A stretch of DNA of 64,000 nucleotides from Eubacteriales bacterium (GTDB lineage Bacteria; Bacillota; Clostridia; Oscillospirales; CAG-382): positions 16,494-80,493 of the forward strand of contig JAZRUR010000041.1 of NCBI GenBank assembly GCA_045652625.1, in the 5' to 3' direction. A model generated the notes under the pieces. It was not told the DNA's origin. It ran no database searches and saw only the letters and a list, made by a program, of their open reading frames with translations. Position numbers and translations under genes: made by a program. Of the stretch, positions 871 through 20,101 are shown one piece after another (within the stretch, counting starts at the first letter, position 1; each line of letters opens with the position of its first letter).

Positions 871-1791
871 ATGAGAGATTCTTTTGTAAAAACACTCATA
901 GGCCTCGCACAAAAAGACCCGAATATCGAACTAATAACAGGCGACTTGGGTTTTGGAGTCTTGAAACCTTATTGGGAAATTATTCCTGACCAGTTTATTA
1001 ATGCAGGAATTGCGGAACAAAATATGACATCACTTGCCGCTGGTATGGCACTTGAAGGAAAAACGGTGTTCACATATTCTATCGGCAACTTCCCTACTCT
1101 TCGATGCGTTGAGCAAATCAGAAACGACTGCGCATATCACAATGCGAATGTAAAAATAGTCTGCATTGGCGGTGGCTTTGTATACGGTTCACTTGGAATG
1201 AGTCATCAAGCAACCGAAGATATTGCCATAATGCGCGCATTGCCCGATGTGGCTGTTTTTGCTCCTGCTGATCCATTCGAAACCGAAGCGGTAACAAAAG
1301 CGATAGCCAAATATTCAGGAACATGCTATTTACGTCTTGGAAGAGGCGGAGAGGAACCGATACACGAAAAACCGTTAACCGATTTTACTATAGGAAAAGC
1401 AATAAAAATTTTTGATGGCGAACGTGTTGCGATTTGTTCAACAGGTGCAATTTTTGACGAAGTCAAAAGAGCGCGTGATGAACTATCAACTTCGGGTATT
1501 ACACCTGCCGTTTACACATTTCCTACTGTAAAACCGCTTGATATTGAAACGATTTTAGAAATTGCACAAAATTATGATCTAATAGTTACCTGCGAAGAAC
1601 ATAACACCATCGGTGGTTTTGGAAGTGCTGTCGCAGAGGTTTTGGCAGAACACATTCATAAGGCGCGTTTGTTAAAAATTGGTGTGCCCGATTGTTATTG
1701 CACGTACGTTGGAAATCAAAAATTTTTGCGTGAACAATTTGATTTAGACGGTGCAAATATCGCGAAAAAAATTCTTGGTAATTTGAAATGA
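871..1791 (+). CDS. Transketolase, C-terminal (pyrimidine-binding) subunit
   Basis: 306 aa with GIAEQNMTSLAAGMALEG and a 1-deoxyxylulose/transketolase-like C-terminal half. It starts 4 nt after the N-terminal subunit gene, the typical split-transketolase pair. Confidence 0.9.
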   Translation: MRDSFVKTLIGLAQKDPNIELITGDLGFGVLKPYWEIIPDQFINAGIAEQNMTSLAAGMALEGKTVFTYSIGNFPTLRCVEQIRNDCAYHNANVKIVCIGGGFVYGSLGMSHQATEDIAIMRALPDVAVFAPADPFETEAVTKAIAKYSGTCYLRLGRGGEEPIHEKPLTDFTIGKAIKIFDGERVAICSTGAIFDEVKRARDELSTSGITPAVYTFPTVKPLDIETILEIAQNYDLIVTCEEHNTIGGFGSAVAEVLAEHIHKARLLKIGVPDCYCTYVGNQKFLREQFDLDGANIAKKILGNLK

Positions 1792-2879
1792 AAGTTTTAA
1801 TTCTTGCAAACCACTTTAATACTTTGCGCATTTTTAGACGCGAACTAATCAAGGCTATATCGCAAAACGGACATGAAGTAATAATATCAATCCCAACCTG
1901 CGATTCAGAAAACAAAAGCATATTAGAATCATACGGCGCACGTGTTGTGTTTACTGATTTTGACAGGCGCGGCATGAATCCTTTGAAGGATTATAAACTT
2001 TTTAAGAATTATAAGCGTCTAATCAAAGAAGAAAAACCTGACAAAGTCATTGCATATACAATCAAGTGCAATATTTACGGCGGACTTGCCGCCAACAAAT
2101 ATAAAATACCGCATTATGCTAATATTACAGGTTTGGGTTCTACATTCCAACAACAAAACTTAACCCGCAAGCTCGTTTCTTTGTTGTATAAGGTTTCGCT
2201 TAGAAATTCAAAAAAAGTGTTTTTCGAAAATGAAGGCAACAAAGACGCGTTGGTCAATGACGGCATTGTCAAATCCGAACAGTCGGTAATTATGCACGGT
2301 GCCGGAGTAAACCTTAAAGAATTCGCACCTATCCCATATCCTGAAGCAGATAGACCGTTGCGTTTTCTATTTGTAGGTCGTATAATGCGAGAAAAAGGTG
2401 TTGATGAATACTTTGAGGCTATTAAACGAATCAAAGTAGAGTATCCCTTTACCGAATTCAATTTTATCGGCTGGTATGAAGATAATTATGAAGCAACCGT
2501 AAAACAGTTGGAGAAAGATTCTTTAATACGTTTCCATGGTTTTCAAGCTGACGTCAAGCCGTTTATACAAAATGCACACTGCACAGTACTCCCCTCATGG
2601 CATGAGGGGATGTCCAACACCTTGCTGGAATCGGCCGCAATGTGCAGACCTTTGATCACAACCAATATTCACGGTTGCAAAGAAGCAGTAATAGAAGGAA
2701 CAAACGGCTTATTAACCGATGTGAGGAATAGCGAGAGCCTATATTCCGCGATTAAACGTTTCATCGAAATGCCTCAAATCGAGCGTTCACAAATGGGTTT
2801 AAATGGCAGAAAACACATGGAAGACTCATTTGATAAAGATATGGTCGTCAGGTTATCCTTAAAAGAGATTTTTTCGTAA
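1788..2879 (+). CDS. Glycosyltransferase, GT4 (GT-B, group 1) family
   Basis: 363 aa. The C-terminal EX7E-type motif is HEGMSNTLLESAAMCRPLITTNIHGCKEAVIEGTNGLL. Its ATGA overlaps the preceding stop. Confidence 0.85.
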   Translation: MKVLILANHFNTLRIFRRELIKAISQNGHEVIISIPTCDSENKSILESYGARVVFTDFDRRGMNPLKDYKLFKNYKRLIKEEKPDKVIAYTIKCNIYGGLAANKYKIPHYANITGLGSTFQQQNLTRKLVSLLYKVSLRNSKKVFFENEGNKDALVNDGIVKSEQSVIMHGAGVNLKEFAPIPYPEADRPLRFLFVGRIMREKGVDEYFEAIKRIKVEYPFTEFNFIGWYEDNYEATVKQLEKDSLIRFHGFQADVKPFIQNAHCTVLPSWHEGMSNTLLESAAMCRPLITTNIHGCKEAVIEGTNGLLTDVRNSESLYSAIKRFIEMPQIERSQMGLNGRKHMEDSFDKDMVVRLSLKEIFS

Positions 2880-2900
2880 TATTATTAGGAGCGTGGAACT

Positions 2901-4007
2901 ATGTTGAAAATTATGATACTCCTTGCAGTATCAATGTGCTTAGCCTATTGTTCACAACATGGCATATTGGTAGTTCCACTTACCCAAAAACGAAAACTCG
3001 ATATCCCGTTAATCGTTATGATTATTCTGCTAAGTTTAGTTGTCGGGTTAAGAACAAGTTATAACGATACATACATATACAGAGTCTCTTTTAATAATGC
3101 CTCCACTTTTAACGAATATATTAATTCATCCCCTGGACTTTTTGATAATCCCCTATTTTACGCATTTCAAAGTATCTTTAGACACTACATTTCTGCAAAT
3201 TACCACTTGTTCTTTATTGTGATAGCTTTTTTCACAATTGCAAGTTTTATTCGTTTCATACATAAATACTCACATAATTTCACTTTTAGTATTTTCCTGT
3301 TTTTTGCAATAGGGTTATATGTTTTTTGCATGGCCGCAATGAAACAATGCTTAGCAATGGCTATTTTATCATATGCAATTGACCACCTTATTAATGGAAA
3401 GTATATAAGATATTATTTGTTGTTGTTTCTCGCCATTCTTTTTCACGCGTTTGCTATTGTTTTTATCGTCTTGCCGCTTTTTACTCAAAAACCCTGGACT
3501 ATAACAACTTTTATTGTAATAGTTGGAATCGTTGCGTTTCTCTTCACTTTTGAATCCACCATCAATAGCGTTCTTTCTGTCGCTGAAGATGTCGGCAAAG
3601 ATATTAATGACGAGCAAGTGTTAGACACGGCAAGTATAAACCCATTTAGGTTAGCTGTATATTCCATACCAACAATCATCTCTTTTGTGTTCCAAGAACT
3701 CTTAAATAACAACTACTCTAAGTCGAAAAACATTTTCACAAATATGGCAATTTTGAGTTTTTTAATAATGGCTATCGGAATTTTTGGAGGTGCCAATATG
3801 TTTGGTCGAGCTGCCATATATTTTGACTTTGGTATGATTATTGTTGCTCCTTGGCTAATTGATGAAATTTTCGCAACCGAGTCGCGCAACCTTTCACACA
3901 TTTTTGTAGGCGGTTGCTATTTGGCTTTTTTTGCGTATATGGTTAAAGATTTTTCCTCTGCATATCACGCGATCAGTCTTATTGATTTTTTTCAAACGCT
4001 TATTTAA
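2901..4007 (+). CDS. EpsG-family polytopic membrane protein (Wzy-like repeat-unit polymerase candidate)
   Basis: 368 aa, very hydrophobic with about 10 predicted TM segments. It is rich in F/I/L/Y like EpsG/O-antigen polymerases, has an AGGAG RBS upstream and lies inside a glycosyltransferase cluster. Confidence 0.65.
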   Translation: MLKIMILLAVSMCLAYCSQHGILVVPLTQKRKLDIPLIVMIILLSLVVGLRTSYNDTYIYRVSFNNASTFNEYINSSPGLFDNPLFYAFQSIFRHYISANYHLFFIVIAFFTIASFIRFIHKYSHNFTFSIFLFFAIGLYVFCMAAMKQCLAMAILSYAIDHLINGKYIRYYLLLFLAILFHAFAIVFIVLPLFTQKPWTITTFIVIVGIVAFLFTFESTINSVLSVAEDVGKDINDEQVLDTASINPFRLAVYSIPTIISFVFQELLNNNYSKSKNIFTNMAILSFLIMAIGIFGGANMFGRAAIYFDFGMIIVAPWLIDEIFATESRNLSHIFVGGCYLAFFAYMVKDFSSAYHAISLIDFFQTLI

Positions 4008-4026
4008 TTATTAAGGGCTTATAATT

Positions 4027-5013
4027 ATGGTTTCAAAAATCAAAATCAGTGTTATTATTCCAGTCTACAATGTTGAGAAATATCTTGATGAATGTATCAT
4101 GAGTGTACTTAAGCAAGATTATGGCAATATTGAAATCATTCTTGTTGATGATGGTTCGACAGATAAATCCCCATTAATTTGTGATAAATACGCCAACGAG
4201 CATGCACATATCATGGTTATACACAAAGAAAACGGCGGTAGTTCCGATGCTAGAAATGCCGGTATTGCAATTGCCTCGGGTGATTATATAATATTTTTGG
4301 ACAGCGATGATTTTTGGAATGAAAGCAACGCTATATCTTGTCTAGTTAGAAGATTACACATTTTTCAATCAGATGTTTTAAACTTTTCATATACAAAGTT
4401 TTTCGAAGATACAAATAAGACCGAACCATACATAGATGCAGAAGACATGCCATTACCGACCAAACTCAAAGCCGAACAACTCCGGTATATTTTCAAAAAT
4501 AATCTTTATATAGCGTCGGCGTGGAATAAACTAATAAAGCGCGAATTGTTCGACCATGAACTCTTTTTTGAAGTTGGGGTTTATTCAGAGGATATAGAAT
4601 GGTGTGCCAAATTATTATCAAAAGCGCAATCGTTTGATTTTGTTTCGGTCAACTTTCATTATTATCGTCAGCATAGTCATTCCATTTCCCATACAATTAA
4701 TGATAAAAAGTGCAGTGATTTATGTAGTCATATCATTTCTTGTATTAGCATGGCACATAATGAAATTGACGAATGTGTAAAAAAATATCTATATAACTAT
4801 ATTTCATATCAATTTGGAACATTTTTCGTTGTTCAGGCACTTGCACAAAATGTCCAAAACATTTGTATAGAAAAGTTGAAATCGCACACTTGGATTTTAT
4901 CATATCACAACGGTAATAAAAAACTTATAGCATTGAATATTTTGTGCAAACTGTTGGGATATGTAAATACATGCAAAATAATACGATTATTATATAAAAA
5001 GCGGAGAAAATAA
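4027..5013 (+). CDS. Glycosyltransferase family 2
   Basis: GT-A signatures VIIPVYNVEKYL, LVDDGSTD and FLDSDDFW. Paralogous to the 8028..9014 product. Confidence 0.9.
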   Translation: MVSKIKISVIIPVYNVEKYLDECIMSVLKQDYGNIEIILVDDGSTDKSPLICDKYANEHAHIMVIHKENGGSSDARNAGIAIASGDYIIFLDSDDFWNESNAISCLVRRLHIFQSDVLNFSYTKFFEDTNKTEPYIDAEDMPLPTKLKAEQLRYIFKNNLYIASAWNKLIKRELFDHELFFEVGVYSEDIEWCAKLLSKAQSFDFVSVNFHYYRQHSHSISHTINDKKCSDLCSHIISCISMAHNEIDECVKKYLYNYISYQFGTFFVVQALAQNVQNICIEKLKSHTWILSYHNGNKKLIALNILCKLLGYVNTCKIIRLLYKKRRK

Positions 5014-5015
5014 CT

Positions 5016-5903
5016 ATGATTCCAATCACGGTTTTTACCCCTGCCTATAACCGTGCCGACCTGTTACCAAGGTGCTACGAAAGTATGCAGCGCCAAACGT
5101 GCAAAAACTTTATTTGGATGATAATTGATGACGGTTCTACGGACGGCACAAAAGAACTAGCGAATACTTGGATCGCCGAAAACAATGAATTTAAAATCCT
5201 GTATTTTTACAAAGAAAACGGCGGTTTGCATACTGCTTATAATGAGGCTATTGCCCATATTGAAACCGAATTATGCGTCTGCATAGATTCAGATGACTTT
5301 ATGCCGGACGACGCCATAGAGAAGATTTTGATGTTTTGGAATCTTAATGGCTCCGATAAATATGCCGGAATAGTCGGACTTGATTATACTTTAGATGGCA
5401 ACATCATCGGAGATAAACTTCCCGAACAAAAATCAATCAATTTAATAGATTTGTTAGTAGGCAAATACCCTATAGTTAATGGCGATCGAACCAATGTTGT
5501 TCGTACCGAACTTTATAAAAAGTTTGCTCCTATGAAAGTATTTCCGGGCGAAAAAAACTTCAATCCGCATTATCTACATTTACTGATCAGCCAAGAATTT
5601 GACTTTTTAATCATGAATGAAAATTTGAGGTTTGTCGAATATCAAGCAAACGGCATGACCAATTCAATGCTCAAGCAATATAGGAACAGTCCAAACAGTT
5701 TCGCCGAAATACGAAAACTATATTTAAGTTTCCCTAATACTCCTCTTAAATTCAAGTTAAAACACTCAATACATCTCGCTTCAAGTTTGATTTTGGCACA
5801 TAAATTAAAAAATATTAATAAATACTCTTCTCATAAACTCATTTCATTTATAACGATCCCCTTTGGTTATTTGTTATCTCTATATATAAAATCCAAAACA
5901 TAA
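5016..5903 (+). CDS. Glycosyltransferase family 2
   Basis: TVFTPAYNRA, IIDDGSTDGT and IDSDDFM motifs. Paralogous to the 9197..10093 product. Confidence 0.85.
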   Translation: MIPITVFTPAYNRADLLPRCYESMQRQTCKNFIWMIIDDGSTDGTKELANTWIAENNEFKILYFYKENGGLHTAYNEAIAHIETELCVCIDSDDFMPDDAIEKILMFWNLNGSDKYAGIVGLDYTLDGNIIGDKLPEQKSINLIDLLVGKYPIVNGDRTNVVRTELYKKFAPMKVFPGEKNFNPHYLHLLISQEFDFLIMNENLRFVEYQANGMTNSMLKQYRNSPNSFAEIRKLYLSFPNTPLKFKLKHSIHLASSLILAHKLKNINKYSSHKLISFITIPFGYLLSLYIKSKT

Positions 5904-5914
5904 AGGATTTCTGT

Positions 5915-7036
5915 ATGATTAAAGTCTTATTTTTAATACATGATTTATCAGTCGGCGGTGCAGAAAAAGTTCTCGTAAACCTTGTCAACAATATGGATAA
6001 GAACAAATTCGAGATAACCGTAATGTCATTGTTTGATGTAGGCGTTAATAAACAGTTTTTAAAAGATGATATCAAATACAAGGGTTGTTTCAAACACCTT
6101 ATCCCTGGTAATTCACATTATATGAAATTGCTCTCTCCTAAACGTCTATATAAATGGCTTATAAAAGATGATTATGACATTGTCGTTTCCTATTTGGAAG
6201 GACCTACAGCGAGAATCGTTGGCGGTGCACCGAACAATGTCAAGGTCGTTTCTTATGTTCATTCAACTTTGTCATCAAAAAAGGATATTGCACGTTCCTT
6301 CAGAAACTTTAAAGAAGCAAAGAAATGCTATGAACGTGCAAATATTATGGTGTTTGTATCCGAAACATTAAAAAACACTTTTCAAAAATCCTGTCCGACT
6401 CATAACAATATTGTTTTATATAACACCAATGAAACAAATGACATTATATTGAAGTCAAAAGAGGTTGTCGATCACACAGCATTTAAAGGTAATTCCTTTA
6501 ATTGGTGCGGTGTCGGCAAAGTCGTTTCTGCCAAGGGCTTTGATAGAATGTTGCGAATACAAAAACGGCTGTTAGACGACGGATACAGTGTCCACTTTCA
6601 TGCATTGGGCATTGGCGACCAATTGGATGAATTCAAAGATTGGTGCATAAAAAATAACATTATTGATGCTGTTACGTTTTGGGGATATCAAACAAATCCT
6701 TACAAATATGTTGCAAATTGTGACTTATATGTATGCGCTAGTTTTGCCGAGGGCTTTTCTACTGCAGCCACCGAGTCACTTATTGTCGGCACACCGGTTT
6801 GTACTGTCGAAGTTTCCGGTATGAAAGAAATGCTCGGTGATAACAACGAGTATGGAATAGTTACCGAAAATGATGAAGATGCCTTGTATTTTTCAATAAA
6901 AAAATTAATTGATGATCCTTCCCTCTTAGCGCACTATCGCAAAATGGCACTCGAACGAGGAAAGGTATTTAGCACAGAACGCACCGTAGCCGCAGTCGAA
7001 GATGTTTTGTATGATTTGTATATGAGGAAAAACTAA
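5915..7036 (+). CDS. Glycosyltransferase, GT4 family
   Basis: N-terminal LSVGGAEKVL and C-terminal SFAEGFSTAATESLIVGTPV (EX7E-like), typical of GT-B group 1 enzymes. Confidence 0.85.
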   Translation: MIKVLFLIHDLSVGGAEKVLVNLVNNMDKNKFEITVMSLFDVGVNKQFLKDDIKYKGCFKHLIPGNSHYMKLLSPKRLYKWLIKDDYDIVVSYLEGPTARIVGGAPNNVKVVSYVHSTLSSKKDIARSFRNFKEAKKCYERANIMVFVSETLKNTFQKSCPTHNNIVLYNTNETNDIILKSKEVVDHTAFKGNSFNWCGVGKVVSAKGFDRMLRIQKRLLDDGYSVHFHALGIGDQLDEFKDWCIKNNIIDAVTFWGYQTNPYKYVANCDLYVCASFAEGFSTAATESLIVGTPVCTVEVSGMKEMLGDNNEYGIVTENDEDALYFSIKKLIDDPSLLAHYRKMALERGKVFSTERTVAAVEDVLYDLYMRKN

Positions 7037-8028
7037 TGTCCGATTTCATATCTATTATAGTTCCCGTTTATAATACTGCCGATTTTCTTCCGCGTTGCTT
7101 GGACAGTATTATTAACCAAACATATAAAAATATAGAAGTTATTGCTGTTGATGACGGCTCAAGCGATAATTCGTTAGAAGTTTTATATAAATACGCAAAG
7201 CAATATCCACAAATACGTGTTATACACCAAGAAAATGCCGGAGTTACCGTTGCAAGAATACGCGGTATTAATGAAGCGAACGGAGCATGGATCGGGTTTG
7301 TAGATTCTGACGATTATATCGAACCCGATATGTATTTCGTCCTGTTAAATAATGCCTTGCTACATAATGCCGATATCTCTCATTGTGGTTACCGTATGGT
7401 GTTTAATGATGGCAGAGTAAATTTTTTCTACAATACAAATCAAACCATTGTACAAGATAATGAAAAAGGTATTATAGATCTTTTAGAGGGTACTATGGTA
7501 GAACCCGGTCTGTGTAATAAACTATTTCGAAAAGATCTATTGCACAAAGCCGTAAACAATTCTAACTTTGACAAAAGTATTAAAATTAATGAGGATCTTC
7601 TGCTGAACTTTTTTATTTTTAATCATTCTCATAAATCTGTATTTCTTGATATATGTCCATATCATTATATTGTACGGAATAATTCCGCATCACGACAAAA
7701 ACTTAATATCAATAAAATTTTTGACCCGATACGAGTTAGAGAATTGATTTTATCCAATTGTAACGAACACATTCACATATCACCAGTTGCAAAAAAGTCG
7801 TATATCAACTCTTGCCTCTACGCTTGTCATTCTATTCTTGTATATGATAAGAAAAAATTCAGCACCGAATTCGACGAAGTTAGACGAAAACTTAAATCCT
7901 CTAAAACTGAATTTTCGTTAATAGGTACCAAGCATAAGTATATGGCATACGGTGTGCTATACTTCCCTGTGCTCTACAGAATATTTTATAATTTCTTTAA
8001 AAATTTCAGAAACAAAAAATATGACTAA
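7036..8028 (+). CDS. Glycosyltransferase family 2
   Basis: SIIVPVYNTADFL, AVDDGSSDNS and FVDSDDYI motifs. The start overlaps the previous stop by 1 nt. Confidence 0.9.
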   Translation: MSDFISIIVPVYNTADFLPRCLDSIINQTYKNIEVIAVDDGSSDNSLEVLYKYAKQYPQIRVIHQENAGVTVARIRGINEANGAWIGFVDSDDYIEPDMYFVLLNNALLHNADISHCGYRMVFNDGRVNFFYNTNQTIVQDNEKGIIDLLEGTMVEPGLCNKLFRKDLLHKAVNNSNFDKSIKINEDLLLNFFIFNHSHKSVFLDICPYHYIVRNNSASRQKLNINKIFDPIRVRELILSNCNEHIHISPVAKKSYINSCLYACHSILVYDKKKFSTEFDEVRRKLKSSKTEFSLIGTKHKYMAYGVLYFPVLYRIFYNFFKNFRNKKYD

Positions 8029-9014
8029 TGGGTATTAACATGAAAGACGATCTTATTTCTATCATTGTTCCAATATACAAGGTTGAAAAATATCTAAATA
8101 AATGTATTGAAAGTATTGTCAATCAAACCTATAAAAATCTTGAAATCATACTCGTTGACGACGGTTCGCCCGATAACTGCCCTGCAATGTGCGATGAATG
8201 GGCAAAAAAGGATTCGAGAATCAAGGTGATACACAAAGAAAACGGCGGTCTTTCGGATGCTCGAAATGTTGGCATGGCAATAGCAACCGGCGATTACATC
8301 GGTTTCGTTGACAGCGACGATTGGATTCGCGAAGACATGTATAGTTTATTATATGAAGATATGCATGATAACAACAGTGATATTTCTGCATGTGGAGTTA
8401 CGTGCGTATACGATAATGAAACAGAGCCAACAATGTTGACTTCAACCGGTAAATATACATTTTCGACCGAAGAAGCAATGATTTCAATCATTAATGAAGA
8501 TATATTAAAACAACCGGTTTGGTATAAGTTATATAAAAGAAAAGTTATTCAAGATATTAGTTTTCCTGTTGGCAAATTGCATGAGGACGTTTTTTGGAGT
8601 TATCAAGCGATCGGAAACGCCAAAATCGTTTCTGTCTTTGATGAACCCTGCTACTATTACAGACAAAGAAATGATAGTATTATGGGATCAGTTTTTTCCA
8701 TGAAGCATTTTGATTCAATCGAAGCAAAATTATATCGAATCAATTATATTAAGGATAACTTCCCCAAACTAATCGCTTTGGCAAAATGCCAATTGTGGTT
8801 TTCATGTATCTATGCACTTCAAATGGGATTACTCCATTTAAATAAAGACGATTTTAAAAAAAGTGTAGGCATAGTCAAACAAGCGAGACAATATTGCATA
8901 CCGTTTGAAACTAAAAATATTTTAACTCCTAAGCAAAAACTTTGGTTGGCTCTTTCTAGAATTTCATTATTGTATACATCTAAATTGCGCAATTATTTGA
9001 AAATCGGATTTTAG
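8028..9014 (+). CDS. Glycosyltransferase family 2
   Basis: SIIVPIYKVEKYL, LVDDGSPDN and FVDSDDWI motifs. A TAATG start/stop overlap couples it to the upstream gene. An alternative ATG lies at 8040. Confidence 0.9.
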   Translation: MGINMKDDLISIIVPIYKVEKYLNKCIESIVNQTYKNLEIILVDDGSPDNCPAMCDEWAKKDSRIKVIHKENGGLSDARNVGMAIATGDYIGFVDSDDWIREDMYSLLYEDMHDNNSDISACGVTCVYDNETEPTMLTSTGKYTFSTEEAMISIINEDILKQPVWYKLYKRKVIQDISFPVGKLHEDVFWSYQAIGNAKIVSVFDEPCYYYRQRNDSIMGSVFSMKHFDSIEAKLYRINYIKDNFPKLIALAKCQLWFSCIYALQMGLLHLNKDDFKKSVGIVKQARQYCIPFETKNILTPKQKLWLALSRISLLYTSKLRNYLKIGF

Positions 9015-9125
9015 TAGGAAACATTTCTGAATCCTATATCAGACACAACATAAAAAACATTATTGCGAGCAACACAAAAAACATTTATCTAACAAAACTT
9101 TACCGAAAATAGCATTATTAAAAAA

Positions 9126-9161
9126 ACAATGGAATAGAATAACGTCTATTCCATTGTTTTG
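9126..9161 (+). terminator. Rho-independent terminator inside the glycan locus
   Basis: A perfect 13-bp stem pairs ACAATGGAATAGA (9126-9138) with TCTATTCCATTGT (9145-9157). The loop is 6 nt, followed by TTT and preceded by an A-run. Confidence 0.7.
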
Positions 9162-9196
9162 CGCAGAATTCTAGTGGTATTTGGGAAAAAACAAAC

Positions 9197-10093
9197 ATGA
9201 GAAAAATTACTGTTTTCACTCCAACATATAACCGTGCATACATAATAGAAACATTATTTAATTCTTTAAAACGGCAAACATTTACAAATTTCGAATGGTT
9301 AATTGTAGACGACGGCTCGACTGACAACACCGAATCTTTAATTAATTCGTATAAAAAACAAAACGTTCCTTTCGAAATTGTATATATTAAGCAAGAAAAC
9401 AAAGGAAAATGCCACGCAATTAATACTGGATTAGATAATGCAACCGGAAGATTATTTTTCACTGTCGATTCCGATGACTATTTGACCGACGATGCATTAG
9501 AAAAAATAATCAAATGGGAAAGTGAATTACCTAAAGAAATACCATTTTGCGGTTTAGCGGCAAATTCGGGCACGTTGAAATCAAAAACACCAAATAAAAT
9601 TTTTGAGACCGAGTATGTTGATGCAACGCTCTTGGAGCGTTACACCTACATTGACGGAGAACGCGCTTATATTTTTTATACTGATGTCCATAAACAATAT
9701 AAATATCCTGTTTTCGAGGGCGAAAAATTCATGACAGAAGCAGTAACATGGAACAGAATGGCGCACGACGGTTTCTTAATGAGATTTTTCAACGATATTA
9801 TTTTGATATACGAATATCAAGAGTCGGGTTTGACAAAATCCGGTTCATCCATTTTTTTGAATAATCCTCAAGGATATGGTCTATGGTTGCGCGAGAAATC
9901 CGAATTCATGAGACAAACATTCTTGCAAAAACTTCAAATGTTATATACTTTTTGTTGTGATCTATACCCTAAATATAATACAGAATTCATTGCCAAATGT
10001 ATAAATTATAGGCACATTTACGTCAAATTAATGATTAACATTAATAAAATCAAACGTTTCATTTTCAAATCAAATAAAGTTAAACACGAGTAG
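9197..10093 (+). CDS. Glycosyltransferase family 2
   Basis: TVFTPTYNRA, IVDDGSTDNT and VDSDDYL motifs. The gene ends in tandem stops TAG TGA. Confidence 0.85.
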   Translation: MRKITVFTPTYNRAYIIETLFNSLKRQTFTNFEWLIVDDGSTDNTESLINSYKKQNVPFEIVYIKQENKGKCHAINTGLDNATGRLFFTVDSDDYLTDDALEKIIKWESELPKEIPFCGLAANSGTLKSKTPNKIFETEYVDATLLERYTYIDGERAYIFYTDVHKQYKYPVFEGEKFMTEAVTWNRMAHDGFLMRFFNDIILIYEYQESGLTKSGSSIFLNNPQGYGLWLREKSEFMRQTFLQKLQMLYTFCCDLYPKYNTEFIAKCINYRHIYVKLMININKIKRFIFKSNKVKHE

Positions 10094-10126: not shown

Positions 10127-10593
10127 ATGAATCTAATATTGGCTTTTAAATCGCGTATTGCAAGGCCATTACAACAGCGATATTTTGAATATTCCAAATA
10201 CGGACCAAAAATCAAAAAATACAATAACAAGTTTAATAATAAACGTTGTTTCATCGTCGCTAATGGTCCGAGTTTACGAACAGAGGACTTGGATATCCTA
10301 CACGAACGCGGAGAAATCACATTCGGCATGAACCGTATATATAAATTGTTTTCTGAAACAAAATGGCACCCAGCATTTAATGTAATTATTGACCCGACTG
10401 CAAGAGATTATTTTTGCGAAAGATATGACAGTGACATACAAGATATTGTAGTTCATGACATGGGAAACAATACCCGCGCCTATATTGATGCAAAAAATAT
10501 TGTGAGGAAACCTGCAAAACTACAATCTATAATGCAACTCGCGGTGGCAAACTAGAAGTGTTCCAACGAGTCGATTTTGAAGGTTTATTTTAA
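10127..10593 (+). pseudogene. Decayed DUF115 (MptE-like/Maf-like) glycan transferase paralogue with an internal deletion and a frameshift
   Basis: The N-terminus (KRCFIVANGPSLRTEDL...KWHPAFNV) aligns with the intact paralogue at 12183..12947. The alignment then jumps straight to IIDPTARDYF...YIDAKN, skipping about 100 aa of the core. After about nt 10510 the homologous tail TTIYNATRGGKLEVFQRVDFEGLF* continues in another frame, ending at TAA 10591-10593. Confidence 0.75.
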
Positions 10594-10594
10594 A

Positions 10595-12142
10595 ATGGAA
10601 AATAAAAGTCAGTTAAAAAGCGGAATTATGCTTTCATATGTAAACTTAATAGTTGGCAACTTAGTGCCTCTATTCTATACTCCCGTTATGCTTCGTATCC
10701 TCGGGCAAAGTGAATATGGGTTATATTCGTTGGCAACTTCGGTTACGAGTTACTTATCTTTAATGAGCATGGGTATAAGTTCTGCCGTTGTACGGTATCT
10801 TGTTAAGTTCCGCGCAAAAGGCGATACAGAGGGCGAAGGAAAAATGCTTGGGCTTTTCTCGTGTATTTTTTTTGTAATAGCCGCTCTTACTCTCGTTGTC
10901 GGATGTGTTATAGCGTTTAATATTGATGTAATATATGGCAATTCATTGTCTGCGACAGAATTATCGAAGATTAAAGTGCTAACTGTTTTGCTTTCAATTA
11001 ACACTGCCTTATCTTTTGCATTTACAGTGTATGGGGCAATCGTAATTGCCCATGAACGCTTTGTTTTTCAGCAGGTACTTAATATAATAGCCACAATTTT
11101 ACCTGCATTTTTAAACATTCTAGTTTTATCTCTCGGTTTTTCTTCGACGGGGCTCGTAATATCAACATTAATCCTCAGTTCGATTACATATGTAATACAA
11201 ATGATTTATTGTTACAAAAAAATCAATATCAAACCTATTTTCCACGACATGCCATTTTATTTACTAAAGGAACTTATATCATTCTCATTGGTTATTTTTA
11301 TTGCTAATATTGCAAACACTCTATATGGCGCTACGGACAAGGTTATTATTGGCGCATATTTAGGCACTGCCGCGACCGCCGTTTACAATATAGGTCTAAC
11401 CTTTAGAAATATTGTACAGTCACTCTCAACATCCATGAGCACACTTTTAGTCACGAAAGTAACCACAATGGTTGATAAAGATGCCTCCTCGGATGAATTA
11501 TCAGAAGTATTTATTAAAGTTGGCAGATTACAGTTTATAATTGTTGGCTTGGCTGTCGGAGGTTTTTGCGCCTTTGGCAGAGAGTTTACAGTTTTATATG
11601 CAGGACATGAATATAGCGGTTCCTATTTTGTTGCAGTATTATTGATGCTCCCTATGGTTGTTCCTCTTATTCAAAATATTGGAATTAGTATTATAACTGC
11701 AATGAACAAACACCGATTCCGTGCAAATGTTAACATTGCGGTTGCAATTTTAAATTTAATCACAACGATTCCACTTGTAAAATATTGGGGCATTATCGGC
11801 GCCTCTTTTACCACATTCTGTAGTAATCTTATAGGTTCTGTAGCCCTAATGAATTGGTATTACTACAAAAAAATCAAATTAAACATTCCTTTATTTTGGA
11901 AGAACATTGCAAAAATGGCTGTGATACCAATAACACTTACCACTATTGCAATTTTCTCTAGCAAATATTTCGACTATACCAATCCTTTTATTTTCATAGT
12001 CGCAGTGGCGCTCTATGCGACATTCTATTCTCTACTTATGTGGCCAAAACTTAGTATTTATGAAAAAAATCTAATTTTAGGAGTATTTCGTAAATTTTCA
12101 GGCAAATGTAGTAAATCTCGCATTTCCATGAAGCGCGAATAA
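10595..12142 (+). CDS. wzx: Wzx-type (MOP superfamily) oligosaccharide flippase
   Basis: About 515 aa of polytopic membrane protein with roughly 12-14 TM segments, with polysaccharide-biosynthesis-protein-like sequence (GNLVPLFYTPVMLRILGQSEYGLY). The ATG at 10595 is preferred over the TTG at 10577. Confidence 0.8.
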   Translation: MENKSQLKSGIMLSYVNLIVGNLVPLFYTPVMLRILGQSEYGLYSLATSVTSYLSLMSMGISSAVVRYLVKFRAKGDTEGEGKMLGLFSCIFFVIAALTLVVGCVIAFNIDVIYGNSLSATELSKIKVLTVLLSINTALSFAFTVYGAIVIAHERFVFQQVLNIIATILPAFLNILVLSLGFSSTGLVISTLILSSITYVIQMIYCYKKINIKPIFHDMPFYLLKELISFSLVIFIANIANTLYGATDKVIIGAYLGTAATAVYNIGLTFRNIVQSLSTSMSTLLVTKVTTMVDKDASSDELSEVFIKVGRLQFIIVGLAVGGFCAFGREFTVLYAGHEYSGSYFVAVLLMLPMVVPLIQNIGISIITAMNKHRFRANVNIAVAILNLITTIPLVKYWGIIGASFTTFCSNLIGSVALMNWYYYKKIKLNIPLFWKNIAKMAVIPITLTTIAIFSSKYFDYTNPFIFIVAVALYATFYSLLMWPKLSIYEKNLILGVFRKFSGKCSKSRISMKRE

Positions 12143-12182
12143 AATATATGAAAATTAATGTGTCGCGGTAATGAGGTTTGAT

Positions 12183-12947
12183 ATGCACCCAATTAAATCT
12201 ATCCAGGCAAGAACTCAAAGTTTTTTTTCAAAACATTTTGAATGGACAAGACACGGAAGAAAACTTGCAAAACTAAAAAATACCAATATTAACAATCGTT
12301 GTTTTGTAATTGGAAATGGCCCAAGTTTGCGTCCCGAAGATCTTACCACTCTTTTTAATAACAACATCCCGTGTTTTGCTTCCAACAACATTTTTAAGAT
12401 ATTCGATAAAACAGTTTGGCGCCCAACTTACTACGTCTGTGAGGATATTTTAGTATTAGAAGACCTTCACAAAAAAATCTCTCAGACAAATTTTGATTTC
12501 AAATTCATTCCAATTAACTATAAGTGGTATAATGATATCAAAATTTCTAATGCACACTATTTCTTGCAATCATTTGAAAAGAATATAGAACTTTCCGACA
12601 ATATCCCTCACTCTATCGTTTGCAAAAGCACAGTTACTACTACCGCTATCCAATTGGCGGCATATATGGGATACACAGAAATTTACTTATTAGGCGTAGA
12701 CCATAGTTACAGAACCACTCGAGATAACGCAGGAAATATCATTGTTGATCCAACTGCTACCGATTATTTTGACAATAATTATGCAGAAACAATGAAGAAA
12801 AAAGATATCCCAAACACTGAGGCTACAACACAATCTTATATCGATGCTAAAAATCAACTCGATAAAAGAGGTGTTACTGTTTATAATGCAACACGTGGCG
12901 GTAAACTCGAAGTTTTCCCGCGTATTGATTTTGATACACTATTTTAG
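12183..12947 (+). CDS. DUF115 / 6-hydroxymethylpterin diphosphokinase MptE-like family protein (Maf-like putative ulosonic-acid transferase)
   Basis: RCFVIGNGPSLRPEDL Rossmann-like start, LLGVDHSY core and ATRGGKLEVFPR C-terminus. The ATG at 12183 follows a GAGG RBS, and an alternative ATG lies at 12171. Confidence 0.7.
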   Translation: MHPIKSIQARTQSFFSKHFEWTRHGRKLAKLKNTNINNRCFVIGNGPSLRPEDLTTLFNNNIPCFASNNIFKIFDKTVWRPTYYVCEDILVLEDLHKKISQTNFDFKFIPINYKWYNDIKISNAHYFLQSFEKNIELSDNIPHSIVCKSTVTTTAIQLAAYMGYTEIYLLGVDHSYRTTRDNAGNIIVDPTATDYFDNNYAETMKKKDIPNTEATTQSYIDAKNQLDKRGVTVYNATRGGKLEVFPRIDFDTLF

Positions 12948-12955
12948 AGGTCTTT

Positions 12956-13612
12956 ATGAAAACAATCGCAGTTGTACCAATGAAACTTAATAACAGACGT
13001 TTGCCGCAAAAAAACACAAAATGTTTCACAAACGGAAAACCGCTCTGCTATTATATTTTATCAACACTTTTACAGGTTGATAAAATCGATGAAATATATG
13101 TTTATTGCAGCAATCCTGATATAAAAGATTTCATCCCTGAAGGTGTTAAATATCTGCAACGCTCTACGGAACTCGATCAAGATACAACAAAAATGAACGA
13201 AGTTTTAAAGGCATTTGCCAATGATGTCCCTGCCGATGTGTATGTCATGACCCACACCACAGCGCCCTTTATTTCAAAAGAATCAATTACCAAAGGTTTG
13301 GATGCAGTTTTGTCCGGCGAATTCGATTCTGCATTTGCCGCAAAAAAACTTCAAGATTTTCTTTGGAAAGATAGCAATCCTTTCAACTATACACTTGATA
13401 ACATTCCTCGTACGCAAGATCTTCCTCCGCTTTACGAAGAAACTAGCGGTTTTTATATTTACAAAAGTGATATAATTACTCAGATGGAGCGTCGCATAGG
13501 TAATAAACCTTATATTGTAGAAGTGAATGCTATAGAAAGCATTGATATTGATGAATATGAAGACTTTGTGATTGCCGATTCAATTTTTAACCATCTTTAT
13601 GCATCTAAATAA
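12956..13612 (+). CDS. Acylneuraminate/ulosonic-acid cytidylyltransferase family protein (CMP-sugar-acid synthetase, NeuA/KdsB/SpsF-like)
   Basis: 218 aa. The N-terminal IAVVPMKLNNRRLPQKN signature and its size and organisation fit the CTP_transf_3 family. Confidence 0.75.
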   Translation: MKTIAVVPMKLNNRRLPQKNTKCFTNGKPLCYYILSTLLQVDKIDEIYVYCSNPDIKDFIPEGVKYLQRSTELDQDTTKMNEVLKAFANDVPADVYVMTHTTAPFISKESITKGLDAVLSGEFDSAFAAKKLQDFLWKDSNPFNYTLDNIPRTQDLPPLYEETSGFYIYKSDIITQMERRIGNKPYIVEVNAIESIDIDEYEDFVIADSIFNHLYASK

Positions 13613-13632
13613 GACAAGGAGACGGTATACAC

Positions 13633-15213
13633 ATGAGTAAAATTAAGGTTTTAGATTGTACGCTTCGTGATGGCGGATATGTTAATAATTGGATGTTTGG
13701 CGAAAAGAATATACAACATATCATAGATGGTCTTATCAATGCAAACGTTGACATTATTGAATGCGGATATTTAAACAATACTAAAACATACCCTATCGGC
13801 AGCAGCACTTTTTCTTCATTAACGGATATTTCACAATATATCTCCGTTAATAAAAGTGATTGCGAATTCGTCTGCATGATCAATTACGGTGACTTTAACA
13901 TTAATGATCTTCCGATCTGTGATAATAGTTCCGTTACGGGAATACGTGTTGCGTTTCACAAAAAAGATATCGATGGCGCTCTTGAGTTTTGCGCTAAGGT
14001 AAAAGAACTTGGATACAAATTATACGTTCAACCGATGGTTTCTTTGTCTTACTCGGATATTGAATATATCAATTTGATTCAGCGTGTTAATAGCATTAAC
14101 CCATACGCTTTCTATATTGTTGACAGTTTTGGTGTAATGCGTAACAAAGATTTAATGAGATTATTTTATCTGGTAGAACAAAACCTTGACGAACATATAT
14201 GCATAGGATACCATTCGCACAACAATCTTCAACTCGCATTTTCTAATGCGCAGTCCATGGTAACTTTGAATACGCCAAGGAGCATTATAATCGATAGCAG
14301 TGTTTTTGGAATGGGAAGAGGCGCAGGAAATCTCAATACCGAACTGTTTGTCGAATATCTCAACAATTTCGTTGACCGCAAATACGAAATCAAACCTTTA
14401 CTCCGCATAATGGACGAGGTTTTAAGCAATATATATTTTTCAAATTATTGGGGTTATTCTCTTCCACACTATTTATCAGCAGTTCACAACTGTCACCCCA
14501 ATTATGCATCTTATCTTGATTCGAAAAAAACACTCACAGTTGAAGATATCGACATAATTCTAAACACAATACCTATTGATTCTCGTTCTAACTTTAATAA
14601 GAATACAATAGAGACTTTATATTTAGAATTCATGTCAAAAGTAACTCAAAATCCCAAAACTGATATTGTTATGTCTATCTTCAAAAACAAACGCATTCTT
14701 GTTATTTGCCCCGGTCAAAGTTGCGAAGTTGAGAAGGACATGATAAAAGAATTTGCTAAAAATGATGATATAATAACCATATCTGTTAACTTTGATTATC
14801 AACATATTGATACAAACTACATATTCTTGAGCAATCTACGTAGGTTACAAAATATAAGCAAATCGGTTTATAACAAAACTATAATAACCTCAAATATTAA
14901 TGACAACAGTTTCCCTTATATTGTCGAATACGAATCGCTTTTAAATAATAAACCTCATGTAAGCGATAACGCTGCGCTTATGCTGGTTAAACTATTGATA
15001 GAGTGCGGCGCTAAAGAATTATTCTTCGCAGGTTTAGACGGTTATTCGTATGATACAGCGCAAAATTACGCTAACAAAGAACTCGCCCTGACTACACCAA
15101 ATATAATTTTAAGAGCCATGAACGAAGAAATGAGTTCGGTTCTGAGCCAATATAAAAATGAAATAGACATTCATTTTTTAACTACATCAAAATTTATAAC
15201 TATCAAAGACTAA
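13633..15213 (+). CDS. Fusion protein: N-terminal DRE-TIM (HMGL-like) aldolase domain plus C-terminal DUF115/MptE-like domain
   Basis: The N-terminal half has KVLDCTLRDGGY, IIECGY and GYHSHNN (Asp/His/His metal ligands of HMGL-like aldolases), then GMGRGAGNLNTEL. The C-terminal roughly 180 aa (ILVICPGQS...FFAGLDGYSYD) resembles the DUF115 proteins encoded just upstream. Confidence 0.75.
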   Translation: MSKIKVLDCTLRDGGYVNNWMFGEKNIQHIIDGLINANVDIIECGYLNNTKTYPIGSSTFSSLTDISQYISVNKSDCEFVCMINYGDFNINDLPICDNSSVTGIRVAFHKKDIDGALEFCAKVKELGYKLYVQPMVSLSYSDIEYINLIQRVNSINPYAFYIVDSFGVMRNKDLMRLFYLVEQNLDEHICIGYHSHNNLQLAFSNAQSMVTLNTPRSIIIDSSVFGMGRGAGNLNTELFVEYLNNFVDRKYEIKPLLRIMDEVLSNIYFSNYWGYSLPHYLSAVHNCHPNYASYLDSKKTLTVEDIDIILNTIPIDSRSNFNKNTIETLYLEFMSKVTQNPKTDIVMSIFKNKRILVICPGQSCEVEKDMIKEFAKNDDIITISVNFDYQHIDTNYIFLSNLRRLQNISKSVYNKTIITSNINDNSFPYIVEYESLLNNKPHVSDNAALMLVKLLIECGAKELFFAGLDGYSYDTAQNYANKELALTTPNIILRAMNEEMSSVLSQYKNEIDIHFLTTSKFITIKD

Positions 15214-15263: not shown

Positions 15264-15818
15264 ATGTTTCAATGGTTTTATCGTTTGCCGTTATCATACG
15301 TTATAGTTGCAACGGTTTTTGTCATATTTCTTTGGAGTTTTCTTCAACACAAATATATTTCACGTGGATACGGCAGTGGAATAAAAACGGTATGTTATTG
15401 GAAACTTTTAAACATTGCACTTCTAACATTTTCGTTATTTGTTATAGTTAACTTCACTCTACTGTCGCGCGATGCCGGTATGCACGATCTTATATTGCAG
15501 CCTTTTTACTCTTTTGAAGTTGCAAAGATACAACCGGAAATGTACCGTTCCTTATTAATGAATATTGTTTTATTTGTTCCCTTTGGAATGTCTTTTTCGT
15601 GTTTATTAAACGAACATCGTACAATTCTCTTCCGTATGATATTCACTTCCCTCCTCGCTTGTCTTATAAGCCTTTTAATCGAGGCTACACAGTATTATTA
15701 CAATTTAGGCGAGGCATGGACAGACGATGTCATATGCAACACCATAGGCGCGTTTATAGGCTCCTTAACGATCGTCGTTTGGAAGTTATACTATTTAAGG
15801 AAAAATAACTATACGTAA
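15264..15818 (+). CDS. VanZ-like family membrane protein
   Basis: 184 aa with 4-5 TM segments. NIVLFVPFGM and EATQYYYNLGEAWTDDVICNTIGAFIG match the VanZ-like pattern. Confidence 0.7.
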   Translation: MFQWFYRLPLSYVIVATVFVIFLWSFLQHKYISRGYGSGIKTVCYWKLLNIALLTFSLFVIVNFTLLSRDAGMHDLILQPFYSFEVAKIQPEMYRSLLMNIVLFVPFGMSFSCLLNEHRTILFRMIFTSLLACLISLLIEATQYYYNLGEAWTDDVICNTIGAFIGSLTIVVWKLYYLRKNNYT

Positions 15819-15821
15819 AAG

Positions 15822-15850
15822 AAGAATCCACCTCAACGGTGGATTCTTTT
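15822..15850. terminator. Bidirectional rho-independent terminator between convergent genes
   Basis: An 11-bp stem pairs AAGAATCCACC (15822-15832) with GGTGGATTCTT (15838-15848), with a 5-nt loop and T/A runs on both sides. Confidence 0.75.
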
Positions 15851-19979: not shown

Positions 19980-20048
19980 GTGTTTTTAAGGATTTATACA
20001 CGTTTTTGAATCTTTTGTAACGATTTTTGAAATTATATTGTTTCGCGG

Positions 20049-20077
20049 TTGATTTTTTATGTAATTTTGTATATAAT
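20049..20077 (+). promoter_or_regulatory. Putative sigma-A promoter of the sortase gene
   Basis: TTGATT (20049-20054), a 17-nt spacer, then TATAAT (20072-20077), about 25 nt upstream of the AGGAGG RBS. Confidence 0.5.
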
Positions 20078-20101
20078 ATGCAGAGAAAGGAGGCGGTTAA
20101 T

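Follow-up and report, generated by a model that had tools for sequence, protein, structure and literature searches.

A candidate cassette for a CMP-activated ulosonic acid, centred on an aldolase fused to an MptE-fold domain, in a polysaccharide locus of a Eubacteriales bacterium

Three adjacent genes and the aldolase-like barrel

We analyzed a 64,000-nucleotide stretch (hereafter, the window) of contig JAZRUR010000041.1 from the Eubacteriales assembly GCA_045652625.1, which opens with a polysaccharide locus that includes three adjacent genes on the plus strand. These encode a DUF115/MptE-like protein of 258 amino acids (aa; 12171..12947), a 218-aa cytidylyltransferase of the CTP_transf_3 family (12956..13612), and a 526-aa protein (13633..15213) in which an HMGL-like barrel is joined through a connector to an MptE-fold domain. 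All three open reading frames (ORFs) had been recognized in a first-pass annotation, which interpreted them as a pathway for the synthesis, activation with cytidine monophosphate (CMP), and transfer of a sugar acid; only the start of the first gene requires correction, the ORF opening at 12171 and the start initially given, 12183, being its second in-frame ATG.

The 258-aa protein is, as initially proposed, a clear member of the DUF115/MptE family, which includes the Maf transferases of nonulosonic acids, the GT42 sialyltransferase CstII, and the archaeal pyrophosphokinase (HPPK) MptE (Pfam MptE-like, 53.7 bits vs a cut-off of 34.6). The profile of stand-alone DUF115 proteins to which it belongs was aligned by hhalign with CstII, the query sequence of which had been verified beforehand, over 194 columns (96.9% probability, E = 2.4e-10), and we therefore predict that the 258-aa protein is a CstII-like, that is, GT42-like, transferase for a CMP-activated sugar acid. 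Maf proteins have been reported to transfer N-acetylneuraminic acid (Neu5Ac) and 3-deoxy-D-manno-octulosonic acid (Kdo) (bioRxiv 10.1101/2020.06.03.131540).

The assignment of the 218-aa protein to the CTP_transf_3 family (PF02348) likewise holds, with 73.8 bits against a cut-off of 22.6. Its best NCBIfam match is PseF, at 62.6 bits vs the 205.7 required, the KdsB models score at most 32.7 bits, and the best sequence matches in the Protein Data Bank (PDB) are NeuA (9t4z and 1qwj), followed by KdsB (1gq9). CTP_transf_3 enzymes of known function, namely, NeuA, KdsB, and PseF, activate unphosphorylated ulosonic acids.

The N-terminal part of the 526-aa protein (residues 1-245; 13633..14367, plus strand) is a metal-dependent barrel of the DRE-TIM (HMGL-like) type and a predicted pyruvate-dependent aldol synthase. 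It matches Pfam HMGL-like (PF00682) with 71.3 bits over residues 3-244 (cut-off 29) and contains the TLRDG and HSHNN motifs at residues 10-14 and 194-198, respectively, so that the Asp/His/His metal site described in the first-pass annotation is indeed present: D13, H194, and H196 correspond to the metal ligands of the aldolase DmpG and are invariant in 78 homologues. Among the NCBIfam models, 4-hydroxy-2-oxovalerate aldolases score highest (NF006049, 97.4 bits vs a cut-off of 229; TIGR03217, 89.4 bits vs 286), and the Claisen-type models, including isopropylmalate synthase (IPMS), citramalate synthase, and homocitrate synthase, reach, to the nearest bit, no more than 36 bits (IPMS, 36.2); all NCBIfam scores of the 526-aa protein lie far under the model cut-offs, and no model in NCBIfam release 20 has a cut-off that it passes. 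The same order was obtained in a PDB sequence search, in which the DmpG-type structures 8ih7, 4lrs, and 1nvm were matched with E values of 1e-16 to 1e-12 and IPMS with 0.05, and in a Foldseek search with the full AlphaFold 2 (AF2) model (mean predicted local distance difference test [pLDDT] score, 79.7), in which the aldolases 8ih7, 4lrs, 4jn6, and 1nvm (3e-12 to 1e-10) preceded the Claisen enzymes (about 1e-8). Thus, the barrel groups with the DmpG-type pyruvate aldolases and not with IPMS, homocitrate synthase, HMG-CoA lyase, or carboxyltransferases, a grouping that, had it gone the other way, would have spoken against the pathway initially proposed.

The class II DRE-TIM aldolases DmpG, BphI, and AmnG are, accordingly, the best sequence-profile and fold matches of known function, and the barrel shares with them the Asp/His/His site, the LRDG motif, and the GMGxGAGN signature (GMGAGAGN in DmpG, GMGRGAGN here). 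It differs from them in that the catalytic His21 of DmpG (DVTLRDGSH) is replaced by Tyr16 (DCTLRDGGY), which is invariant in the 78 homologues, as is the additional residue R229, and in its scores far below the equivalog cut-offs. Moreover, a Pfam scan of the 526-aa protein yielded no match to the DmpG communication domain (DmpG_comm, PF07836), none of the annotated recurrent clusters of neighboring genes corresponds to the acylating aldehyde dehydrogenase partner (DmpF/BphJ type), and the genes reside in biosynthetic glycan loci rather than in loci for aromatic catabolism. These sequence comparisons mark the barrel as a distinct sub-family rather than a DmpG orthologue.

The closest solved structure, matched with an E value of 4e-32 at about 29% identity to the 526-aa protein, is PDB 3dxi, the N-terminal domain of the putative aldolase BVU_2661 from Bacteroides vulgatus, which has in common with the 526-aa protein the DCTLRDGGY, GMGRGAGN, and WG motifs and which, according to its title, is part of a longer protein. 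It is a structural-genomics entry to which no function has been assigned, and our search turned up neither a ligand nor a function or publication for it. The alignment with 3dxi runs on to residue 287, into the connector that follows the barrel (residues 246-340; 14368..14652, plus strand), which was delimited from alignments and the AF2 model. The connector is modeled as helical, with low confidence at residues 267-286, and includes the invariant residues Y251, D261, W273-G274-Y275, H288-P289, Y291, and Y330.

The C-terminal MptE-fold domain

The remainder of the 526-aa protein (residues 341-526 plus the stop codon; 14653..15213, plus strand) is a divergent domain with a nucleotide-binding-type MptE/DUF115 fold, hereafter the C-domain. 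Its initial assignment to DUF115 stands at the level of profile and fold, and fails at the Pfam threshold: residues 321-526 alone match MptE-like (PF01973) with 19.4 bits (E = 9e-4) vs a cut-off of 34.6. By hhalign, 78 C-domain sequences and 24 sequences of the stand-alone DUF115 neighbors, each set combined into a profile, aligned over about 125 columns (94.5-94.7% probability, E = 6-8e-8), with the PGxS, N, and GxDG motifs common to both, and seven unrelated neighbor families used as controls gave at most 0.7%. No similarity to CstII was detectable in the same type of comparison (0.2%). When the AF2 model of the C-domain (pLDDT 89.9) was compared with solved structures, the best Foldseek match was the MptE pyrophosphokinase of M. 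jannaschii (8sd5; E = 2.8e-5, TM 0.56/0.51), followed by SteA proteins, and neither Maf (5mu5) nor a GT42 structure (CstII) was among the matches listed; a search of PDB sequences with the profile of the C-domain gave nothing beyond chance matches. The nearest structure is thus the kinase-type MptE, from which the C-domain differs by its fusion to an aldolase.

The residues G361, N386, F398, N401, R404, S420, N421, D445, G467, D469, G470, and T517 are invariant in the C-domain and, judged from this conservation, define a genuine binding or active site. An exhaustive hidden Markov model (HMM) search of 1.84 billion representative sequences (E <= 1e-3) retrieved 1,205 proteins, the best 150 of which comprised 54 full fusions, 86 colinear N-terminally truncated pieces, and 10 others; the sub-family therefore occurs almost only in fusion with the barrel. 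An apparent match of the C-domain HMM to KdsB-like proteins was an artefact of a triple fusion protein (locus L084, described below) in the alignment, and the profile comparisons were repeated without that protein. The C-domain evolves faster than the barrel (mean pairwise identity of 33% vs 47.5%) and, over the same genome pairs, somewhat slower than the stand-alone transferases (42% vs 32%); with identities of 33-42% for the C-domain and 47-58% for the barrel, these rates do not settle its role.

The first-pass annotation regarded the C-domain as a second transferase, an assignment that the comparisons above do not bear out, given the lack of similarity to CstII, the pyrophosphokinase as the nearest structure, and the retention of the invariant residues in a clade of fusion proteins without nearby cytidylyltransferase or glycan genes (see below). 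The C-domain is an obligatory partner of the barrel and, most likely, not the glycosyltransferase. As to what it does, we infer, tentatively and somewhat short of an even chance, that it assists catalysis in a nucleotide-dependent manner, by supplying or processing the substrate or the product of the aldolase, for example, through (pyro)phosphoryl transfer or release of a free aldose. A regulatory role in sensing nucleotides or CMP-sugars, analogous to that of the regulatory domains at the C-terminus of other DRE-TIM synthases, seems rather unlikely, and a role as a transferase less likely again.

Gene neighborhoods and a putative route to a CMP-ulosonic acid

The fusion protein is widespread. 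Among 8,000 candidates scored from a collection of 5.8 billion proteins, 7,948 were significant matches to the 526-aa protein, and the best 120 are all 510-555 aa long, with 50-56% identity over 96-100% coverage. Counting one genome per species, relatives are carried by at least 594 species (594 of the 600 listed stretches were confirmed), so that the combination of aldolase and DUF115 domains, initially regarded as unusual, is the standard architecture of the family. The relatives are found in Bacillota (Clostridia, Bacilli, Erysipelotrichia-like taxa, and Acholeplasmataceae), Bacteroidota, Spirochaetota (Treponema), Campylobacterota (Campylobacterales), Gastranaerophilales, one member of the Alphaproteobacteria, and one Thermoplasmata archaeon. 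Cultivable carriers include Proteocatella sphenisci DSM 23131, Lactimicrobium massiliense Marseille-P4301, Bacillus sp. EAC, Polaribacter porphyrae NBRC 108759, and Sporolactobacillus spathodeae, and the cassette is also present on the 1.56-Mb Acholeplasmataceae chromosome OY781159.1 (L025). The source names of the matches in the protein collection are confined to '4-hydroxy 2-oxovalerate aldolase', 'aldolase catalytic domain-containing protein', and 'hypothetical protein'. A full-text literature search found no characterization of the family or of the cassette. One metagenomic relative of 772 aa (P0157) carries an HpcH/HpaI-type class II pyruvate aldolase N-terminal to the HMGL-like barrel and the C-domain, thus joining two different pyruvate-aldolase folds in one polypeptide.

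To characterize the genomic neighborhoods, 85 loci were fetched, 79 of which are non-redundant and contain the aldolase gene; neighboring ORFs were clustered, and the recurrent clusters were annotated. The association with a cytidylyltransferase, which the first-pass annotation had suggested checking, is pronounced: in 59 of the 79 loci, no more than 150 bp separate the aldolase gene from a CTP_transf_3 gene, and 65 loci contain such a gene at some position. Two lineages of this enzyme are involved, one NeuA/PseF-like (223 aa, 40 loci), to which the protein of the window belongs, and the other KdsB-like (250 aa, 34 loci), with a representative that passes the NCBIfam model for a CMP-Kdo synthetase subfamily (270.7 bits vs a cut-off of 255); both adjoin closely related aldolases. 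Furthermore, in a Campylobacterales metagenome-assembled genome (L084, positions 2352-4658 of the locus), the HMGL-like barrel, the C-domain, and CTP_transf_3 form one 768-aa protein, a Rosetta-stone fusion that links the aldolase and the cytidylyltransferase. In the same locus, a NeuB fragment lies upstream of the triple fusion. Stand-alone DUF115 proteins of the same family as the 258-aa protein are encoded near the aldolase gene in 26 of 86 sources (the 85 loci and the window), and genes for GT42-like DUF115 or polysialyltransferase-like (PF07388) proteins are present in 57 of the 79 loci.

No PEP-dependent (phosphoenolpyruvate-dependent) synthase accompanies these genes in the window: tblastn searches with NeuB of N. 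meningitidis and KdsA of E. coli, both first confirmed as full-length matches to their PDB entries, found nothing in its 64 kb, in agreement with what had been noted for the locus initially. Across the sample, NeuB is encoded in 5 and KdsA in none of the 85 loci; within about 10 kb, 74 of the 79 non-redundant loci have no NeuB, and all 79 have no KdsA. The 526-aa protein itself matches DRE-TIM families only, with no homology to the NeuB or KdsA/DAHPS fold.

Other neighbors vary with the clade, as delineated by average-linkage clustering of the fusion proteins. The gene directly downstream of that for the aldolase encodes a phosphoglycolate-phosphatase-like HAD protein in 20 loci and, in 2 loci, an IMPase-like phosphatase, and a PfkB kinase adjoins the aldolase gene in 8 (the PfkB cluster occurs in about 10 non-redundant loci), with the phosphatase and the kinase never both adjacent; the window has neither. 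The PfkB protein scores 550 bits against the kinase half of a 'KHG/KDPG aldolase/sugar kinase' model and 244 bits against the haloarchaeal kinase for 2-keto-3-deoxygluconate (KDG) and its galactonate counterpart (KDGal). The clade of the window (27 loci, 44-53% identity) carries the cytidylyltransferase, a DUF115 or polysialyltransferase-like transferase, and a Wzx flippase, with the KDG-type kinase in 8 loci and no adjacent phosphatase. Several other clades (about 37-45% identity) have, beside the cytidylyltransferase, the HAD phosphatase, a 685-aa protein whose N-terminus is HAD-like, and polysialyltransferase-like proteins, and often also genes for a TagGH-like ABC transporter and an LCP ligase. 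Loci of this TagGH/LCP type (L039, L041, L044, L047, L053, L059, L066, L067, L074, L079, and others), in which the polysialyltransferase-like proteins are 364 and 508 aa long, look, by gene content, like loci for wall-attached poly-ulosonate ('teichulosonic'-type) polymers of gut and rumen Clostridia.

Taken together, these comparisons suggest that the region 12171-15213 is probably, though far from certainly, one copy of a widespread, conserved cassette that gives a CMP-activated 3-deoxy-2-ulosonic acid, resembling Kdo or a sialic acid, without a PEP-dependent synthase of the NeuB or KdsA type. From the domain identities, conserved residues, synteny, and absence of NeuB and KdsA, we infer the chemistry as follows. 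The barrel would bind pyruvate at the Asp/His/His metal site and add the pyruvate enolate to an aldose or an aldose phosphate, yielding a 4-hydroxy-2-oxo (3-deoxy-2-ulosonic) acid; the 218-aa enzyme would then convert the acid into a CMP ester, and the 258-aa GT42-like protein would attach the sugar acid to a repeat unit, to be flipped by Wzx and polymerized by an EpsG-type polymerase. The cassette is read as being of the CMP-ulosonate type because enzymes of the GT42, Maf, and polysialyltransferase types use CMP-ulosonates, the KDG-type kinase and the Kdo-type cytidylyltransferase of related loci point to 2-keto-3-deoxy acids, and the order KdsB-like protein, aldolase fusion, HAD phosphatase in sister clades suggests a phosphorylated aldose as the substrate. 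The acid may differ between clades. The core of the pathway initially proposed, from pyruvate aldolase through CMP activation to transfer, is thus favored by the conserved gene context, with the exception of the transferase role given there to the C-domain. Of the three findings that the first-pass annotation named as refuting the pathway (affinity of the barrel to CoA-ester enzymes, a non-acid substrate of the cytidylyltransferase, and a conventional synthase just upstream of the window), none was made, the last having been approached indirectly.

This organization is of a known kind. Clusters for nonulosonic acids (NeuB, PseI, or LegI; NeuA, PseF, or LegF; and a sialyltransferase or Maf) follow the same logic, in which the acid is made, CMP-activated by a CTP_transf_3 enzyme, and transferred within a surface-glycan locus by a protein of the GT42/DUF115 or polysialyltransferase-like type; they differ in having a PEP-dependent NeuB-fold synthase where the cassette has a DRE-TIM barrel with an MptE-fold domain, probably pyruvate-dependent, and the cytidylyltransferase of the window scores under every equivalog cut-off. 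The gene order in sister clades also mirrors the Kdo pathway, with its synthase KdsA, HAD phosphatase KdsC, and cytidylyltransferase KdsB, as well as the animal route to sialic acid, which proceeds from Neu5Ac-9-phosphate synthase through a phosphatase to CMAS. Unlike in the Kdo pathway, there is no KdsA and no recurrent KdsD/KpsF isomerase, the HAD protein of the sister clades is phosphoglycolate-phosphatase-like and, in our assessment, not of the KdsC type (its likeness to phosphoglycolate phosphatase being the only one tested), and the clade of the window has no phosphatase and, in the window, a NeuA/PseF-like cytidylyltransferase. Strong comparative-genomic evidence thus suggests a CMP-ulosonic-acid module in which the new part would be a different synthase.

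Several observations weigh against this interpretation. The substitution of Tyr16 for the catalytic His of DmpG indicates that the barrel is not an orthodox aldolase, the predicted substrate class of the 218-aa protein rests on family-level similarity, with all equivalog cut-offs far off, and a CMP-ulosonate route has no evident need of the KDG-type kinase beside the aldolase. In one clade (L054, L055, L061, L068, L072, L078, and L080), the fusion gene is directly preceded by a gene for an acetolactate-synthase-like, thiamine pyrophosphate (TPP) enzyme of 610 aa, usually with no cytidylyltransferase, which suggests that the role of the fusion protein extends beyond CMP-sugar pathways; in a small further clade (three loci, L036, L037, and L040), a TagD-like cytidylyltransferase (CTP_transf_like, 145 aa) is encoded upstream in place of CTP_transf_3. 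Given these clades, the family may have no single product. Within the TPP-enzyme clade, the pair of TPP enzyme and fusion protein lies between the housekeeping genes glmS, rplJ, metK, and tctA in L080 and follows, in L061, a gene for a sulfatase-family protein resembling LtaS and one for a metalloenzyme-DeoC aldolase fusion.

Among the alternatives, the product could be a building block activated with cytidine diphosphate (CDP) and linked through a phosphodiester, as in teichoic acids, rather than a CMP-ulosonate, with the hydroxy-keto acid or polyol precursor made by the aldolase being phosphorylated by the C-domain or by PfkB and converted into a CDP derivative for a phosphotransferase. The pyrophosphokinase as the closest solved structure of the C-domain, the PfkB kinase adjoining the aldolase gene in 8-10 loci, the TagD-like replacement in three, and the TagGH-like transporters and LCP ligase in many loci of other clades are all compatible with such a product. 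We nonetheless consider it improbable, because the NeuA, KdsB, and PseF relatives of the cytidylyltransferase, by general knowledge of the family, use unphosphorylated ulosonic acids, the commonest direct neighbor is a phosphatase (20 HAD and 2 IMPase-like) and not a kinase, the accompanying transferases resemble the CMP-sugar-dependent GT42 enzymes and polysialyltransferases, and the window has neither PfkB nor an adjacent phosphatase. A little less probable still is a scheme in which the cytidylyltransferase and the DUF115 transferase work on an ordinary Kdo or nonulosonic acid, the product of a KdsA or NeuB encoded just upstream of the window or elsewhere in the genome, with the aldolase fusion engaged in tailoring, salvage, or side-chain synthesis. 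The start of the locus does lie outside the window, five related loci carry NeuB, and the apolipoprotein N-acyltransferase Lnt encoded in the window makes possible a diderm host with a Kdo pathway of its own; against these stand the proximity of the cytidylyltransferase (at most 150 bp away in 59 of 79 loci from different phyla, with fusion in one case), the scarcity of NeuB and the lack of KdsA within about 10 kb, and the alternation of NeuA-like and KdsB-like enzymes beside closely related aldolases, which fits an aldolase, rather than an outside synthase, that defines the substrate.

That the C-domain itself is the glycosyltransferase, making the 526-aa protein a synthase-transferase fusion as in the first-pass annotation, is in our view quite improbable. 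The idea draws on the relationship of the C-domain to the DUF115 transferases and the motifs common to both, and on the 22 of 79 loci in which no GT42-like or polysialyltransferase-like gene was recognized, many of the contigs being short. However, hhalign relates the stand-alone DUF115 family, and not the C-domain, to CstII, the best folds are the pyrophosphokinase and SteA, the TPP-enzyme clade, with neither a cytidylyltransferase nor glycan genes close by, retains the invariant residues, and the C-domain is always fused to the synthase, whereas acceptor-specific transferases vary by locus. Least probable of all appears a barrel that acts as a Claisen-type synthase or carboxyltransferase on a 2-oxo acid and an acyl-CoA, on the model of citramalate synthase, IPMS, or phosphonomethylmalate synthase, with a hydroxy acid that is not a carbohydrate as the product. 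Such an activity could be reconciled with the replacement of the catalytic His by Tyr16, with the metal and 2-oxo-acid site common to all DRE-TIM enzymes, and with the weak NCBIfam matches to IPMS, citramalate synthase, and homocitrate synthase, but aldolases lead by HMM score (97 vs 36 bits), PDB search (1e-16 vs 0.05), and fold (1e-12 vs 1e-8), the barrel lacks the Gln of the RDGxQ motif that is generally known from CoA-ester enzymes, and the recurrent neighbors include no CoA-related or PEP-mutase genes.

A CMP-ulosonate cassette in its fullest form, which we put forward as conceivable and not quite probable, would represent a previously unrecognized route of gut Clostridia, Bacteroidota, and other phyla, in which a metal-dependent, pyruvate-using DRE-TIM aldolase works with an obligatorily fused MptE-fold domain responsible for a new coupled step (for instance, supply or channeling of the aldehyde, or sensing of the CMP-sugar), and the products enter clade-specific polymers. 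These would be Wzx/Wzy heteropolysaccharides in the case of the window and ABC-exported, LCP-attached 'teichulosonic'-type polymers elsewhere. Ulosonic acids, including sialic acids, Kdo, pseudaminic acid (Pse), and legionaminic acid (Leg), are central to recognition on microbial surfaces, and genome surveys score them by the presence of NeuB or KdsA. If the proposed route is real, hundreds of species, many of them abundant gut and rumen Clostridia and Bacteroidota, carry 'sialic-acid-like' decorations that are invisible to such surveys. Moreover, a DmpG-like aldolase would here serve biosynthesis, the MptE/DUF115 fold would acquire a new role, and a family that so far goes by the labels 'aldolase catalytic domain-containing protein' and '4-hydroxy 2-oxovalerate aldolase' alone, with the orphan structure 3dxi among its members, would receive a function.

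The surrounding polysaccharide locus

The polysaccharide locus occupies one strand from position 1 to about 15.8 kb of the window. At its head is a split transketolase (1-1791), the first gene of which, for the N-terminal half, extends past the window start, so that the 5' end of the locus lies beyond the window. The transketolase had been listed initially among the carbon-carbon bond-forming enzymes of the locus, and we do not count it as belonging to the module: it is a singleton without a counterpart in the 85 related loci and so would belong to another sugar pathway of the same locus. It is followed, on the plus strand, by two GT4 genes, a gene for an EpsG-type polymerase, and five GT2 genes (1788..10093; Pfam), and, next to the cassette, by a gene for a Wzx-type flippase (10577..12142, plus strand; Pfam Polysacc_synt_3 and Polysacc_synt), the cluster of which is also found in related loci. 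Between these lies a 142-aa ORF (10127..10555, plus strand) that BLASTP identifies as an internally deleted paralogue of the 258-aa protein: it aligns with residues 5-92 and 187-232 of the latter, has lost the central part with the GVDH motif, and scores 31.8 bits against Pfam MptE-like, under the cut-off. By these features, it is probably a remnant, that is, a decaying duplicate.

Downstream of the cassette, a VanZ-like gene (15264-15818) is the last of the locus. A terminator-like hairpin with an 11-bp stem (15822..15848, minus strand), detected in a consensus scan, separates it from a convergent NTP_transferase gene and is the likely 3' boundary of the locus, such sites being no commoner in the region than expected by chance; promoter and terminator scans of the region gave matches at chance level throughout, and an Rfam scan returned no RNA match. 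The guanine-plus-cytosine (GC) content is 33-36% over 2-16 kb, the glycan locus, vs 38-44% in the remaining window; low GC is common in exchanged surface-glycan loci. The rest of the window contains housekeeping genes (clpX, tig, serS, lnt, pheT, and dnaG). The same chromosome encodes both a class-B-sortase-like protein (20027-21073) and the apolipoprotein N-acyltransferase Lnt (33277-34869).

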